This document shows, piece by piece, positions 21,741-29,357 of a stretch of DNA of 48,743 nt (position 1 is its first letter; each line of letters opens with the position of its first letter). Both the position numbers and the translations under genes were made by a program. The notes under the pieces are model-generated. The model saw nothing but the letters and a program-made list of their open reading frames with translations, was not told the DNA's origin and ran no database searches. This stretch comes from a virus. The stretch lies in the UHGV virus genome UHGV-1373020. The stretch is one strand, 5' to 3'.

Positions 21741-22113
21741 AGAATTAGTAAGCCAGATGGCATCCCGTGGAATGACTATCACCACAACGGATGCGTCTGG
21801 CATTCTGTGCCTTGTGGCGTCAATCAGTGAATGCCTTGAACTGAACTATCCTAATGATGAATGCCGACAAAATGCGATCATGCTGTGGGCTTCCATCCTG
21901 ATTAGCGCAAATACCACTGGTCGCTACGTTACCAGTCAGAGCGCACCATCTGGGGCATCGCAATCATTCGCATATGGCAGTAAGCCATGGGTGGCGCTGT
22001 ACAATCAGATGAAGTTACTGGATACAGCCGGATGCACTGGCGATTTGGTGGAAGACCCTGACGGAAGCGGTAAGCCGTGGTTTGCGGTTGTGCGTGGGAG
22101 TAAGTGTAAATGA
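21721..22113 (+). CDS. hypothetical protein (130 aa)
   Basis: Start is taken at the ATG at 21721. The tracked ORF starts at 21685. Confidence 0.5.
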   Translation: MTAPTPEELVSQMASRGMTITTTDASGILCLVASISECLELNYPNDECRQNAIMLWASILISANTTGRYVTSQSAPSGASQSFAYGSKPWVALYNQMKLLDTAGCTGDLVEDPDGSGKPWFAVVRGSKCK

Positions 22114-22733
22114 AAAGAGTGATGGCTGTATATAAGATTGAAAATACAATAACTAAAGAGATTTATGTTGGCTCAACAATAAACTACATCAATAGAATTG
22201 CTGTGCATCGATACAAAATGAGGAATGGCATGCACAGCCCGCACAGGTTGTATAATGATGGAGCAAAATATGGCGAGTCATTATTCAGATTTTCAATTCT
22301 TGAAATTGTTAGCGATGAATCAATCCTGCTTAGTAGAGAGCAATTCTACATAGATAAGCTAAGTCCTCAATATAATGTGGCAAAAATAGCTGGTACGTGC
22401 TTGGGAGTTCAGGCAACAGATGTGGCTAAAGCTAAAATGAGCAAAAGCAGGATGGGAAAGAATAACTGCTGGTATGGGAAAACCCCACCTTGCTCTATGG
22501 GTCCAAAAACAGAAGAAACAAGAAAGAAAATATCGCAATCAAGAATTGGCGAGAAAAACCCAATGTTCGGCAGGACTCCAAAACACGCTAAATTAACTGA
22601 TGATCAGGTTAGGGAGGTGAGAACCAGACTAGCAAATGGAGAGCACTCACAATCACTTGCTGATGAGTTTGGCGTGTCTAAAGGTGCTATCCAGCACATC
22701 AAGAAAAATCGCTCATATAGGAATGTTTTATGA
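22110..22733 (+). CDS. free-standing GIY-YIG homing endonuclease
   Basis: N-terminal YKIEN...IYVGST...NRIAVHRY matches a GIY-YIG domain. Two NUMOD3-like repeats (SRMGKNNCWYGKTPP, SRIGEKNPMFGRTPK) and a C-terminal HTH follow. AT-rich codon usage. ATGA overlaps on both sides. Confidence 0.85.
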   Translation: MKRVMAVYKIENTITKEIYVGSTINYINRIAVHRYKMRNGMHSPHRLYNDGAKYGESLFRFSILEIVSDESILLSREQFYIDKLSPQYNVAKIAGTCLGVQATDVAKAKMSKSRMGKNNCWYGKTPPCSMGPKTEETRKKISQSRIGEKNPMFGRTPKHAKLTDDQVREVRTRLANGEHSQSLADEFGVSKGAIQHIKKNRSYRNVL

Positions 22734-23071: not shown

Positions 23072-23469
23072 TGCCAGCGAAATTAAGAGGCATCCGCCAG
23101 GCTGTAGAAAGAACATCGCAGATTGTGGATGAGATAATCGCCACGAAAGCGGTGCGTGCATTAAAGTCAGCGACATACATCATCCGCACCGAATCAGCCA
23201 CATTGACGCCAATTGATACGTCAACTCTGATTAACAGTCAGTTTGATACCGTGGAAGTTAGCGGAACGCGAATCACTGGCAAGGTTGGCTATTCCGCGAA
23301 ATATGCGCTGTATGTCCATAACGCCAGTGGGAAACTTGCAGGGAAACCTCGCAGCAACGGCAATGGCGCATACTGGTCGCCGAATGCTGAACCGCAATTT
23401 TTAACCAAAGCGGCACAGCGCACGAAAGACCTTGTCGATAGCGTGATTAAGAAGGAGATGAAACTGTGA
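23071..23469 (+). CDS. HK97 gp10-like head-tail joining protein
   Basis: The KYALYVHNASG region resembles the HK97 gp10 family motif. Confidence 0.55.
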   Translation: MPAKLRGIRQAVERTSQIVDEIIATKAVRALKSATYIIRTESATLTPIDTSTLINSQFDTVEVSGTRITGKVGYSAKYALYVHNASGKLAGKPRSNGNGAYWSPNAEPQFLTKAAQRTKDLVDSVIKKEMKL

Positions 23470-23840
23470 ACATGCTTGAGCTGGTTGATGCATATCTTCA
23501 GGGTGCCGGATTGTATGATGGCTGGACTTCGCAGTTGCAGTTCTGGAATGACACCGGAGATGGAAATGAGCAATTTATTGTTCTGCAATCCAATGGTGGC
23601 ACGCAGGTGATGGATGGCCTCGGCGGTGATTTCTATTTCTCGCTGTATGTTGTCGGTAAACATGGTCAATACAATGTGTCGGATGTTGACGCTAAAGCCA
23701 ATGAGATTATCGAATTCATCAAGACACATCCGATTGATTCATGCGTTAACTACATCCAGTTGCAAGCGCCACTTGGCAGGCCAATGCTGACGGAAGAAAA
23801 GCGGCCTGTGCATGAGTTGCTTTTGCGGGTCGTGAAATAA
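23466..23840 (+). CDS. putative tail terminator / tail completion protein
   Basis: Position: last gene before the terminator and the major tail locus. Confidence 0.5.
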   Translation: MNMLELVDAYLQGAGLYDGWTSQLQFWNDTGDGNEQFIVLQSNGGTQVMDGLGGDFYFSLYVVGKHGQYNVSDVDAKANEIIEFIKTHPIDSCVNYIQLQAPLGRPMLTEEKRPVHELLLRVVK

Positions 23841-23945: not shown

Positions 23946-23949
23946 ATAA

Positions 23950-24480
23950 GTGCTGGTTTAAGCATTGCTAGCGTGCTTTCTTAACATCCAGCCCCGTAAC
24001 CCATACATACCCCTACATATGATTGCGATAATACTGGATGTTAAGTGTTGTGGTGGCCGGTGCTGATCTCCGGCTTGATGATTCCCCGTGTCTTGTGGCC
24101 GCTAACCTTTTCATCTACGGAGGCGGGTCAGTTAATCCCTGCCTACCCGGTGTAACCACCGGAACCCACGCGAGTTAGCGCATCAGCCTGCGCATTCACC
24201 ACAACGGTAAGAGCACTGGCTAACCAAGCGCGCCGACTCTTCACGATTATCGGCTCAATGCTCTTACCTGTTGTGTTCCCTGACTTATTAATCACACCTC
24301 AGGGACGCAGTGCGCCGAATTTGTTTACAAGGAGTCGGAAGACCTTGCTGACTTACAGGCTATTACGCCGCCATCAGAACAACATCATCGTTTGCATTTA
24401 TCTTTGTGGTCAGTTTCTAAAAAGTCAGCAAAGTCGCTCACGAAAACCATCTGAAATACAATCTACACCACAAAATAATC
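23950..24480. other. ORF-free, GC-rich, hairpin-dense non-coding region; candidate structured RNA or cis element
   Basis: No ORF of 60 aa or more in any frame across about 420 bp. Long-range pairing GGTAAGAGCA...TGCTCTTACC (10 bp) and many perfect local hairpins are present. Confidence 0.4.
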
Positions 24481-24494
24481 ACTGTCAACACCTG

Positions 24495-24503
24495 TGATAT
24501 AAT
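24495..24503 (+). promoter_or_regulatory. extended -10 (TGaTATAAT) upstream of the major tail gene
   Basis: Lies 36 nt upstream of the ATG at 24540, preceded by CAATCTACACC. Confidence 0.45.
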
Positions 24504-24539
24504 CACCACGTTAGCAGCTAACACAATTCGGAGATCGAA

Positions 24540-25256
24540 ATGGCTATTTGTGCAAATGATAAAGGCGTTCTGGTTGGTAGCATGACCCGCCTGTTCCTTG
24601 CTGAAGGGTGCGGCGACGCAGTTCCGGAGGCGGGAGACTGGAAGTATTTAGGATCAACCACCAGTAAAGGTGTTGACTACTCGCCGCAGACCACTACGTC
24701 GGAAGCTGATACCACTGGCGGCTTTGTTTCCACTCTCGTTACCAGCTCTGATATGACCATCAGTGCAGAGGTTGAAATCCGCAAGAATGACCCGAGCGAT
24801 GAGTTTGGCTTCCATCGTCTGGTTGAGATTTACGCCACTGAACTTAAAGCTCGTCGCCAGCCTTCCTTGTGGGTGCGTCAGGTGACTGGTGCAACTATCG
24901 TTACAGCGTACTGCAACATCACCAGCATCAGCTACGAAGGCGGCACGAACGACATCGTAACCGGCAGCCTTGAGTTCAAAGTTTACGATTCTGACAGCGT
25001 TACCGTTGAAAGTCTTGAGCCTCTGGCATTCACTACTGACCTGCAATCAACTGGCACCACTGGCAGCCCGTTAACCGTTGCGGTTGAGGGTGGTGTATCC
25101 CCATACACCTACGTGTGGCGCAAAGATGGCGTAGTTGTTGGTGGTGAATCTGGTGCGACACTGGCAAGCCCTACCGCTGGCGTGTATACCGTCACGGTCA
25201 CGGATTCGTCCACTGACCCGGAAATTATTATCAGCACGGCGTGCACCGTATCCTGA
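24540..25256 (+). CDS. major tail protein with a C-terminal Ig-like domain
   Basis: 238 aa. The C-terminal quarter is a Thr/Ser/Val-rich beta-sandwich-like segment as in lambda gpV. A strong terminator follows. Confidence 0.75.
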   Translation: MAICANDKGVLVGSMTRLFLAEGCGDAVPEAGDWKYLGSTTSKGVDYSPQTTTSEADTTGGFVSTLVTSSDMTISAEVEIRKNDPSDEFGFHRLVEIYATELKARRQPSLWVRQVTGATIVTAYCNITSISYEGGTNDIVTGSLEFKVYDSDSVTVESLEPLAFTTDLQSTGTTGSPLTVAVEGGVSPYTYVWRKDGVVVGGESGATLASPTAGVYTVTVTDSSTDPEIIISTACTVS

Positions 25257-26989: not shown

Positions 26990-29357
26990 TGGCTGAAGAA
27001 GTCGGCGGAATTGTCTATGAAGTCGGGATGGATGTTAAAGGCCTGAAAGCAGGCGCGACAACAGCCAATAAGACTTTAGATGACCTTGAATCATCAACCA
27101 ACAAAACCACAAGCGCACTTGGCAAGCTGGATAAAAACGCCAGAAATGCTGGCGGTGGGATGAAGAATGCTGGCGGCGCAGCTTCAGGGCTAAAAACGCA
27201 GATGACGGCTCTTGCTGGCGCAATCTCGGTCTCATTAATTATCGGATGGGGCAAGGCGTTCCTTGATATAGCCGATAACATGACGCAATTACAAGCAAGG
27301 ATAAAAAGATTAACTGGTGATGCAGAGACTGCAAAGGAAACATTCAATTCATTAACAAATATCGCCTCTACCACTGGCGCAAGCCTTAGCGATACCACAA
27401 AGTTGTGGGAAACATTAACGTCATCACTGAAAGAGGCTGGCGCGACAAATGCGCAAGTTCTGAACCTTACTGACACTCTGCAAAAAATAGGTCGAATCGG
27501 CGGGTCATCAACCGAAGAAATGGCTAACGCCCTGCGCCAGTTCGGTCAGTCAATCGCATCTGGCACAATCCGCGCCGAAGAATTTAACTCCATCCTTGAA
27601 CAGATGCCTGAACTTGCACGCCAGATTGCGGCGGGTCTTGGCATTTCAATGGGTGAACTTCGCGCCAGAATGCTTGATGGCAAACTGACAGCAGAAGATG
27701 CACTGAATGCCATTCAGGACAGGACAAGTGTCGTCAATGCTGAGTTCGCAAAGCTACCGCGCTCTATATCTCAGGCGACTGGCAGTCTTGAAACATCATT
27801 TGCAAAAATGATAGCAAGCATAAACGACGCAACAGGAGCCAGTTCTACCTTTGTTTCAGTTATTGACTCTATTACCTCAGCAATCAACAGACTAACTGGT
27901 CAGACTATAGGTGCGGCAGAGGTTATTTCTGATTTGACATCAACAGCAGAGATGTTCAGTCGCAGAGCAAGAACATGGTCATGGGTTGGCATTGATGGTT
28001 GGGCTGCGCAGAATCAGGCCATAGCGGCGGTAGCAAATCAGGCAGCCACATTGGTCGCGGATATGGATGCTGTCACCAAATCGACAGGAGATGCGGCAAA
28101 GGCGCAGGCGCACTTGACAGTGCCAAAAGCAGCAGAGAAAGAGAAAAAGAAAAAAGGCAAAAGCGCCGAAGAACGACAAGCTGAGTCAGTGGCTGAAAAG
28201 CTGGAGAAATTACGCCAGCAAACCATGCTTAATGCCACATCTACCAGCGAACTCTCCCGAGAGCAAGCAATCCTCAACGCGCAGCAATCGCTTGGCAAGG
28301 CCGCCACTCAGGAGCAAATAAAACTGGCTGGCGAGTACGCAGCGAAGATTTGGGACCAGAAGAATGCACTAAAGGAACAGGCGGCTGCGGAGAAGGAAAA
28401 GCAGCGAGTAGAACAATCATATCAGGGATTGCGCGCTATTGCGTCACCAACGACTGGCATTGATAGCGAATACCAGCAACGCATGGCTGACCTTGATGCC
28501 TACGCCTCAGCATATCCGCAGAAAATCACTGAGATTGAACAGACTCGCGCAGCAATTGAAGCACAATACCGCCAGCAGCGAATAGATGCCATGTGGGCAG
28601 AATGGCAGCAGCAAAGCCTCGGCGCGCAACTGTTCGGCACAGCTCTTGATTCGGCAATGAGTACAGCATCAAACAGCATTACCGGATTGCTGACAGGCAC
28701 AATGAGCGTTCAGGATGCAATGCGTAGCCTAGGCTCTACGGTGCTCAACTCTCTGGTAAACAGCTTTGTCGAAATGGGCGTGCAGTGGGTTAAATCTGCT
28801 GTTATGGGGCAGACTGCGCAGGTTGCAGCCACAGCAACAACCACAGCGGCGCAAACGGCAGGACTGGCAACCACAACAGCAGCATCGACGGCGGCTGCAG
28901 CCACCACTACCGCAGCGTGGACTCCTGCGGCAATGGTCGCTTCCATAGCATCATTTGGCGGAGCTGCCGCGATTGGTATCGGTGCGGTGCTCGGCGCACT
29001 GGCGATGGGCGTCGCTGGCAAGCGTAAAAATGGTGGCCCTGTTAGTGCCGGAAGTATGTACGAAGTGGGCGAAAATGGCTTGCCTGAAATATTCCAGGCG
29101 TCCAACGGTTGCCAGTATATGATTCCCGGTAACGATGGCTCAGTTATCAGCAACAAAGACATTACCGGAGGTGGTAGTGGCGTTGTGGTTTATAATAACG
29201 TCATCAATAACAGCTCAGCGCAGGTTAGCAGCAGCGCCAGAGATAATGGTGACGGCAGCGTGACGATTGAGACTATTGTTAGTGATATCGAAAACAACGG
29301 GCCTATAGGGCAAAGCATCGGTAGGAACTACAACGCCAACAGGAGAGCAACAGAATA

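Follow-up and report, generated by a model that had tools for sequence, protein, structure and literature searches.

A widespread phage RNA with the body plan of the tmRNA message half and a putatively decoded tag frame

In the virus genome UHGV-1373020 (48,743 nucleotides; this whole stretch is referred to as the window) we identified a core RNA of ~175 nt (24453-24278, minus strand) with a transfer-messenger RNA (tmRNA)-like mRNA-like domain, which we consider, with a probability of roughly 60%, to be a tmRNA-derived or tmRNA-convergent ‘tag RNA’ that is putatively decoded as a template. The core belongs to a phage RNA that is widespread and unannotated, a message domain of tmRNA with no tRNA-like domain attached, and is set in a modular array of tRNA-like and lambda-leader units, of which it is the promoter-proximal one. 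The genome is that of a 48.7-kb siphophage of E. coli/Salmonella, with Bas77-81 (of the BASEL collection), ZCEC08, STGO-35-1, swi2, Akira, DS8, C1 and Sf11 as closest relatives (genera Deseoctovirus, Swiduovirus, Akiravirus and Caminolopintovirus), and the region in question, 23946-24540, is rich in structure and without a conserved open reading frame (ORF) on either strand. A preliminary description of this region had proposed a structured non-coding RNA; it was largely right in its observations and right in kind, yet it missed the conserved 5’ core, the 3’ domain and the tmRNA-type tag frame, which is the decisive feature.

This tag frame comprises ten codons followed by UAA UAG (24395-24360, minus strand; resume codon GCA at 24395-24393, stops at 24365-24360) and has neither a start codon nor a Shine-Dalgarno sequence. 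In the window it reads AUAAAU GCA AAC GAU GAU GUU GUU CUG AUG GCG GCG UAA UAG (ANDDVVLMAA and two stops), compared with GCA AAC GAC GAA AAC UAC GCU UUA GCA GCU UAA UAA (ANDENYALAA and two stops) in the E. coli tmRNA. In an alignment of 45 diverged copies of the core (A1), which is the basis of the frame and covariation counts given here, the frame is exactly ten codons plus stop in 45/45 copies, while the remaining two frames translate into unrelated peptides. In 42 of the 45, the stretch from the nearest upstream stop to the GCA is free of in-frame ATG, GTG and TTG, and an in-frame UAG is found seven codons 5’ of the resume GCA in 36. The A residues at -4 and -3 from the GCA are invariant and the U at -5 is nearly so; in the E. 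coli tmRNA, the A at -4 (A86) sets the reading frame.

Among 12 close relatives the tag is identical, except for Akira (V to I, plus a synonymous GCG to GCA) and swi2 (ANEEMYLAVA). Overall, at least 15 tag variants (ANDDVVLMAA, ANDDVILMAA, ANDEQFLAVA, ANEEMYLAVA, ANDNVFLAVA, ANDDLMLMAA, ANDDQFLAVA, ANDNTFLAVA, ANDSEVLMAA, ANEEMYLAAA, ANDDLMLAAA, ANEEVYLAVA, ANEERFLMAA, AKDDQFLAVA and ANEEAYLMVA) fit the pattern A-N-[DE]-x-x-x-L-[AM]-[AV]-A, one of them with K at position 2. Codons 1, 2, 3 and 10 differ at the third position only, with Ala10 encoded by GCG, GCU, GCC or GCA, Leu7 by CUG or UUG, and the stop being UAA, UGA or UAG; mean entropy at codon positions one, two and three amounts to 0.54, 0.43 and 1.03 bits, respectively (permutation p = 0.011). 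Because third positions dominate the variation, Ala10 uses all GCN codons, the length is fixed and the stops are interchangeable, the alignment argues that the tag frame is under coding selection at the codon level.

Conventional protein coding, with either a real plus-strand ORF or the tag as a conventionally initiated micro-ORF, explains these observations poorly. The sole sizeable ORF of the region, 79 aa on the plus strand (24258-24497), does exist, and the BASEL and KFSST1 records annotate hypothetical proteins there; the earlier statement that the region is ORF-free is hence too strict, and what holds is that this ORF is not conserved and finds no match in Pfam. However, stops interrupt the antisense frame in swi2, Marshall, Moogle, ESP2949-1 and the loci L028 and L030, and a 1-nt indel among close relatives shifts it. 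For the tag itself, the missing start codon and Shine-Dalgarno sequence speak against conventional initiation, and the compensatory pair changes described below would be left unexplained, leaving this reading with hardly any credibility. The opposite-strand ‘hypothetical proteins’ (Bas80_0055/0056, Bas77_0056/0057, KFSST1 CDS0009/0010, Bas81_0062/0063 and VPRG_00076 in L218) vary in length and frame between close relatives and overlap conserved RNA helices, and these annotations opposite the RNA array are probably spurious calls.

Judged from its sequence, the core is laid out like the message half of tmRNA, with an A-rich leader ahead of the tag frame. Its 5’ domain (24453-24396, minus strand), delimited by invariant columns of A1, consists in order of GUUUUCG, a short hairpin with a variable loop, GCGACUUUGCNG, UUUUUAGAAACUGACC and, right before the resume codon, ACAAAGAUAAAU. 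Here a PK1-like upstream pseudoknot may form, tentatively composed of GUUUU 24447-24443/GAAAC 24417-24413 and CUUUG 24433-24429/CAAAG 24406-24402; its second stem becomes UUAUG/CAUAA in L105-type copies and UAUUUU/AAAAUA in Moogle, changes that are lineage-specific and compatible with pairing, but in single sequences such A/U-rich helices cannot be told from those that arise by chance in shuffles. The end of the tag frame and both stops are enclosed in a helix-5-like hairpin (24377-24348; CUGA 24377-24374/UCAG 24351-24348), which is 99.4% paired and in which the pair of columns 88-111 is GC in 24 copies and AU in 21. It is followed by an H-type pseudoknot, pseudoknot a (24347-24315), with the sequence plan CAAGG-UCUUCCGACU-CCUUG-N9-UCGG, whose stem 1 pairs CAAGG 24347-24343 with CCUUG 24332-24328 and whose stem 2 pairs CCGA 24338-24335 with UCGG 24318-24315. 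Three pairs of stem 1 and two of stem 2 are doubly compensated (UA:26/CG:19, GC:30/AU:13, AU:38/GC:7, GC:33/AU:12 and AU:37/GC:7), with ~99% of cells paired. In pseudoknot b (24313-24278), stem 1 (GCAC 24313-24310 with the loop GUGU 24297-24294) is 100% paired and shows double changes from CG to UA and from CG to GC, and stem 2 (CCCUGA 24304-24299/UCAGGG 24283-24278) differs fully between families (CCCUGA, GGCCC, GGCGGGAG, GCCCAC). Its loop UGAUUAAUAA (24293-24284) is invariant across A1, and the 5’ flank GG-U-G is nearly so.

Taken over the 23 proposed pairs, 95.4% of the cells in A1 are standard pairs, compared with 30-46% when the partners are slid by 1-3 columns; ten pairs show double changes, with 95 cells changed on both sides, and the observed covariation score was reached by 0/500 shuffles. 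Compensatory changes, for which a comparison with related phages had been suggested as a check, are present. A long helix enclosing the tag in the minimum free energy (MFE) fold of the window (GACUUUGCUGACUU/AAGUCAGCAAGGUC) was rejected as a conserved element, being mismatched in most relatives with a freely varying 3’ strand. In the 5’ domain (24441-24413), a change from GCGG to GCUG private to the window creates this long, non-conserved MFE helix.

Structure beyond chance, as claimed before, is confirmed for the whole 510-nt stretch, which has fold z-scores of -4.19 (minus strand) and -4.09 (plus strand) relative to dinucleotide shuffles, 0/100 of which were as stable. All stems recorded in the preliminary description are present: GCCGG-N9-CCGGC lies at 24074-24056 and GCGCA-N6-TGCGC at 24194-24178, TCCCTGA...TCAGGGA is the stem of pseudoknot b, GCCGA-N13-TCGGC is the apex of the module A described below, and the long-range pairing GGTAAGAGCA/TGCTCTTACC was found at 24268-24257/24217-24206. 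As to conservation, CCGGTG-taac-CACCGG and AGGCGGG...CCCTGCCT belong to a segment in whose place close relatives have unrelated sequence. The single multi-helix domain envisaged earlier gives way to a mosaic of at least four units. The region was also called GC-rich, which is correct relative to the upstream sequence (0.54 versus 0.45-0.47) but not relative to the downstream tail gene (0.51-0.55), the excess being modest.

BLAST matches to the core were obtained in ~600 phage records, and its presence was verified by sequence in Ackermannviridae (PhaxI, Marshall, KpS110), Ounavirinae (Moogle), Schitoviridae (PhAPEC5, diverged), Drexlerviridae (ESP2949-1), Roufvirus (Vibrio phage pYD38-A) and the group of the window itself. 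A pattern scan of IMG/VR gave at least 120 loci, and ~95 among the matches listed carry the full core; many of the matches listed are lambdoid prophages, where the core is located 3’ of PR’/6S/tR’ and 5’ of the holin. By Megablast the core was found in 124/5426 complete E. coli genomes (~2%), for instance in O26:H11 str. 11368, where it lies unannotated between the Q antiterminator and the holin. In virulent phages it is located in or beside tRNA genes, in ESP2949-1 next to the terminase genes.

This distribution bears on two further explanations. The first is a cis element, either the packaging or replication signal proposed earlier or a regulatory or leader element of the major tail gene, to which the position immediately 5’ of that gene and the structure on both strands would fit. 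Elsewhere, however, the core resides in tRNA arrays, beside the terminase genes of ESP2949-1 and between Q and holin of lambdoid prophages, and it has its own divergent promoter; a cis function is accordingly very hard to sustain, and the packaging or replication signal in particular does not agree with a core found at unrelated positions in unrelated phage families. The second is a functionless graveyard of decaying tRNA or tmRNA fragments in a tRNA insertion hotspot. The mosaic middle of the region, which differs between close relatives and contains swapped modules and isolated T-arms, would be in line with decay, as would the gain and loss of tRNA cargo, but the core is intact across phage families that share nothing else, shows compensatory changes and amino-acid conservation, and has a conserved promoter of its own, which makes mere decay highly improbable.

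A number of results weigh against decoding of the core as a tag template. Scanned against Rfam at curated thresholds, the region returned the tRNA only, and a permissive scan gave weak minus-strand hits only, all to tmRNA families and centred on 24396-24360, each below its gathering score (RF04321 28.7 bits versus 47; RF01850 17 bits); the Rfam scan suggested as a check thus yielded the tRNA and sub-threshold tmRNA hits but no family at threshold besides tRNA. Such sub-threshold matches, to four families, recur at the same spot in every relative; in Lewi, RF01849 reaches 30.4 bits versus 50. The alpha_tmRNA alignment spans the resume context, the tag and the next pseudoknot but skips ~130 model positions of the tRNA-like part. 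ARAGORN at default settings called no tmRNA in the window or in 108 oriented loci, the permissive Rfam scan of the whole 48.7-kb genome detected no tRNA-like domain elsewhere, and the core is without a G3:U70 acceptor stem, T-arm and 3’ CCA of its own. The predicted 5’ end lies only ~5-8 nt ahead of the core in the window phage (~5 nt there), its relatives, Moogle and pYD38-A, which leaves no room for a 5’ acceptor strand. Local alignment to E. coli ssrA shows no significant similarity outside the tag. The tRNA-like unit further downstream, domain B (24205-24047, minus strand), carries U3-A70 and a ‘T’ loop of 9 nt, does not encode a CCA, and is missing from the copies of Ackermannviridae, Ounavirinae and the L105-type. 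Finally, we know of no mechanism that loads a ribosome on a tag template untethered to a tRNA-like domain. The core consequently does not qualify as a tmRNA, having no tRNA-like domain and scoring below threshold, whereas the tag frame, the A at -4, the stop-codon hairpin and downstream pseudoknots of the message half are present.

Several candidates for a missing partner or an origin were rejected. Derivation from E. coli ssrA fails with an alignment at shuffle level, and an acceptor stem formed by pairing of the 5’ and 3’ ends (UGGUUU/AAACCA) is broken by a G to A change in most relatives. Upstream hairpins as a permuted acceptor piece have too short a spacing, with merely 0-5 nt between upstream hairpin and core in type-I copies, and the T-arm on the wrong side. 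Pairing of the core with the host tmRNA by strand invasion gave duplex energies not better than shuffled controls. A scan of species-representative genomes for the resume-plus-tag pattern returned 76 hits versus ~69 expected by chance, none with pseudoknots, and no bacterial tmRNA lineage with the exact pattern.

With lowered thresholds ARAGORN produces implausible permuted models with the correct tag, and it reads the same tag frame in Moogle and L105. In Moogle (620-1368) its ‘permuted tmRNA’ extends across several tRNA genes and gives the correct tag ANDNVFLAVA with both stops, while in swi2 (440-814) an artefactual ‘tmRNA’ fuses tRNA-Met with upstream sequence and carries the meaningless tag AKAVRLRKCSFRCGECAG. 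Automated phage annotation may occasionally label the core locus as tmRNA.

The core being without any tRNA-like domain also speaks for a rival in which it acts as a decoy or inhibitor, an untranslated mimic of the tmRNA message domain that titrates SmpB, S1, RNase R or stalled ribosomes. The invariant loop UGAUUAAUAA suggests a bound partner, and the tmRNA fragment of phage DS6A, which consists of the tRNA-like domain (TLD) only, has been described as a tmRNA inhibitor (PMC4131195, PMC11915505). A mimic does not, however, explain the three-base periodicity, the four Ala10 codons, the fixed length of ten codons and the interchangeable stops, and it should copy the host tag, from which the phage tag consistently differs at positions 5-9. 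We therefore consider a decoy unlikely, albeit the most serious competitor to a decoded tag template among those discussed here.

If the core is decoded, ribosomes would read the tag frame through a trans-translation-like, SmpB-dependent entry, which we infer for want of any other known process able to read a frame of this kind. In the proposed course of events, a promoter-driven operon inserted between the tail-terminator and major tail genes would supply the tag RNA as its first and best-conserved product, ribosomes that stall during infection would be released, and nascent chains would receive a phage-specified C-terminal tag. In the host tag, the C-terminal ALAA comprises the residues that ClpX reads. 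The phage tag differs from this degron at these residues, and ribosome rescue during infection, together with an altered fate of tagged proteins, would be a plausible benefit to the phage. The tRNA-like function might be contributed by a non-canonical partner of the same operon (domain B, the modules with T-arms or the CCA-bearing mini units of Kuttervirus), or the host tmRNA-SmpB might be used in an untethered way. The more specific version, a ‘headless tmRNA’ whose template borrows a tRNA-like partner, be it an operon RNA or host tmRNA/SmpB, and whose phage tag replaces the host ClpXP degron, is put forward tentatively and may well not hold in this form. Module A, domains B and C and the tRNA would then be variable cargo of the operon, with the conserved long stems and tRNA-like shapes most likely serving as processing punctuation (RNase P, RNase III, RNase E) that frees the individual RNAs.

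The region is a predicted minus-strand RNA operon running from a promoter over structured RNAs and a tRNA-Ile(AAU) to a terminator. A consensus scan identified a sigma-70-type promoter, TTGACA-N17-TAGATT (24488-24460, minus strand; 10/12 matches), from which transcription probably starts near 24453; this promoter is kept in 12/12 close relatives, and equivalent promoters are located 5’ of the core in Moogle, Ackermannviridae and Vibrio phage pYD38-A. At the other end, an intrinsic, bidirectional terminator (23863-23843, both strands), recognized by a terminator scan and from its sequence, closes both the RNA operon and the plus-strand tail-terminator gene (23466-23840), the 5’ neighbour of the region; the 3’ neighbour is the major tail gene (24540-25256). 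The gene next to the terminator, previously called tRNA-like, is instead a bona fide tRNA with anticodon AAT (Ile) and encoded CCA (23945-23869, minus strand; ARAGORN and Rfam, 64.7 bits). Together, the conserved promoter and terminator, the covariation and the lack of a conserved ORF support the earlier proposal of a structured non-coding RNA on the minus strand that is co-transcribed with this tRNA up to a shared terminator.

The tRNA slot is occupied differently among relatives, by tRNA(CAT), by Arg(TCT) plus Ser(GCT), or it is empty. Most relatives have the same tRNA with CAT, the AAT of the window resulting from a single C34 to A change; the AAT form is common to ZCEC08, HC6 and 6947, and PhAPEC5 likewise has a tRNA(AAT) after its array. 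A tRNA-Ile with A34 is unusual for bacteria. Elsewhere in the window, a GIY-YIG/NUMOD3 homing-endonuclease gene (22110-22733, plus strand) lies ~1.2 kb upstream of the RNA operon, surrounded by genes for head and tail morphogenesis, and a weak Rfam match to isrG, a Salmonella prophage small RNA, at 28814-28969 (minus strand; 19.2 bits versus gathering 100, E = 0.39) is probably due to chance.

The middle of the region, 3’ of the core, has a mosaic make-up that changes from one close relative to the next, with modules duplicated or swapped and some carrying isolated T-arms. Module A (24275-24200, minus strand) is a long hairpin of ~19 bp composed of CACAAC-A-GGUAAGAGCAUU, a 39-nt apex and AGUGCUCUUACC-GUUGUG, with one unpaired A in the stem facing the junction. 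It matches phage lambda 44787-44868 (NC_001416), right after tR’, with 77/82 nt identical (94%); lambda has module A and a B-like closing helix (GUUGUGCUG...CAGCACAAC) without the tag core. The stem of module A is kept while its apex is exchanged for unrelated inserts, some with canonical T-arms (GAGGGUUCGAAUCCCUA, GGCGGUUCGACUCCGC, UUAGGUUCAACUCCUAA), and the stem covaries between families (GAGCAUU/AGUGCUC, GAGUACAUU/AGUGUACUC, GGGCAUU/AGUGCCC). Viewed by eye, an A-type hairpin adjoins the core on one or both sides in all but one of the families viewed, the 3’ side of PhAPEC5 and the L105-type being left out of this count. In ESP2949-1 no A-type hairpin was seen downstream of the core. In PhaxI, two tRNA-like units stand between the core and the A-type hairpin on the 3’ side.

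In Kuttervirus phages, the core is followed by two unannotated tRNA-like elements with canonical T-arms and encoded CCA ends (PhaxI ~1390-1590, and Marshall in the same region). One of them, a mini form, has 69 nt, a G3-A70 mismatch and the sequence AUGGGAG...GAAGGUUCGAGUCCUUC CUCCAAU C CCA, and ARAGORN calls neither element.

Domain B, for which 21 distinct variants were tabulated, opens with a 7-bp stem UGUGGUG/CACCACA (9 bp in the window) and an unpaired AA, followed by a 4-bp hairpin with the invariant loop AGGCUGAU (24194-24178) and, in the place of an anticodon arm, a variable insert of 50-190 nt. Next, a hairpin of 5 bp with a loop of 9 nt (24074-24056) directly abuts the 3’ strand, and the tail mostly begins with AC, an NCCA tail occurring in one variant group only (GCCA, one prophage group). 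Compensatory changes are found in both hairpins, and the Akira variant has a canonical D-arm and T-arm. We read this layout as tRNA-like, a reading of our own; neither ARAGORN, with introns allowed, nor Rfam calls domain B a tRNA, and an intron-containing tRNA, undetected in that ARAGORN search, was rejected as a candidate.

Domain C (24045-23952, minus strand) is conserved in all close relatives and includes a 12-bp hairpin (CUUAACAUCCAG 24045-24034/CUGGAUGUUAAG 23991-23980) with a compensatory change from C-G to U-A. It ends with a terminal hairpin or possible pseudoknot, GCUAG-CAAUGCUUAAA-CCAGC (23972-23952), a motif that reappears 5’ of the core in L105-type phages; a change from GCUGG to GCUAG private to the window (23968) weakens this terminal hairpin. 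The G-rich loop of domain C, GUAGGGGUAUGUAUGGGUUACGGGG (23992-24016, minus strand), has four G-runs and no obvious C-rich partner, and a G-quadruplex is possible there; in DS8, the GUAGGGGUAU unit of this loop is present in an extra copy. The modules are flanked by the repeats CACAAC, GUUGUG and CACAAC at 24270-24275, 24200-24205 and 24047-24052, of which the central GUUGUG can pair to the left, where it lengthens hairpin A, or to the right, where it closes domain B. Duplicated modules give a periodic A-B-A-B array in DS8, Bas81 and L023, an arrangement that possibly reflects recombination between the repeats and/or alternative folds.

The core is unannotated in every record checked. We found no report of it, and neither phage tmRNA-like RNAs of this kind nor the tag peptides turned up in a literature search that was incomplete, so that an earlier description is possible; ‘tmRNA’ in papers on these phages appears in ARAGORN citations only, and the ZCEC08 paper reports ‘one tRNA (AAT)’ only. 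Carriers include hundreds of phages of E. coli, Salmonella, Klebsiella, Shigella and Vibrio, among them Bas77-81 of the BASEL therapeutic collection, Kuttervirus and FelixO1-like phages, and the site of the core in lambdoid prophages is the one where Shiga-toxin phages carry tRNAs and stx. If the frame is translated, phages would edit the host degradation tag, and there would have to be either a new route by which a tag template is loaded or a type of tRNA-like partner that has gone unrecognised. Should the template indeed borrow its tRNA-like partner, this would be a new mode of ribosome entry, and phages, down to lambdoid prophages of pathogenic E. coli, would widely have taken over protein quality control; should the core be a decoy, it would represent a widespread anti-rescue weapon. 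In addition, a long-ignored conserved piece of the lambda late leader would be explained as part of a modular RNA array.

For 30 years tmRNA has been studied as a single molecule with tRNA and message halves acting together. The core shares with bacterial tmRNA (SsrA, RF00023) a frame without a start codon that begins at an Ala codon, a tag resembling that of E. coli in type and length, double stops in a hairpin, an A at -4 and H-type pseudoknots after, and possibly one before, the frame. In contrast, it lacks the acceptor stem, G3:U70, T-arm, CCA and ring-closing P2 helix, and it has two pseudoknots 3’ of the tag where bacterial tmRNA has three. The N-terminal AND/ANE of enterobacterial tags is kept, while the phage tag ends with L-[AM]-[AV]-A instead of the ALAA of the E. 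coli tmRNA. The two-piece tmRNAs of alpha-, beta-proteobacteria and cyanobacteria (RF01849, RF01850, RF04321), in which the message part is a separate RNA piece, are the best, though sub-threshold, Rfam matches to the core: the resume context AUAAAU-GCAAACGA of the core is nearly identical to the alpha two-piece consensus, and in the alignment pseudoknot a corresponds to the final pseudoknot of that coding piece. The coding piece of two-piece tmRNAs nevertheless keeps a 5’ acceptor strand, with the acceptor piece just upstream in the gene; both are absent in the core, upstream of which the window holds no acceptor piece but, directly, the promoter.

Among phage RNAs, the unexplained structured stable RNAs C and D (species 1 and 2) of the T4 tRNA cluster are co-transcribed and co-processed with phage tRNAs; they are without a tag frame and are likened to the core by description only. 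In lambdoid prophages the tag core sits in the lambda-type late leader (tR’ to S), flanked by A-type modules, and we know of no function for the lambda segment 44787-44868. In the tmRNA database papers, phage ssrA is limited to mycobacteriophages, Bacillus phage G and the TLD-only DS6A fragment, and no enterobacterial phage is listed in the corresponding surveys of viral genomes (PMC4131195, PMC11915505). The known phage tmRNAs (mycobacteriophage Bxz1 group, Bacillus phage G, Streptomyces BE phages) are complete and usually lie beside tRNA genes, whereas the core is a half; in the DS6A fragment the tRNA-like half has been kept, and the core represents the opposite half (PMC4131195, PMC11915505).

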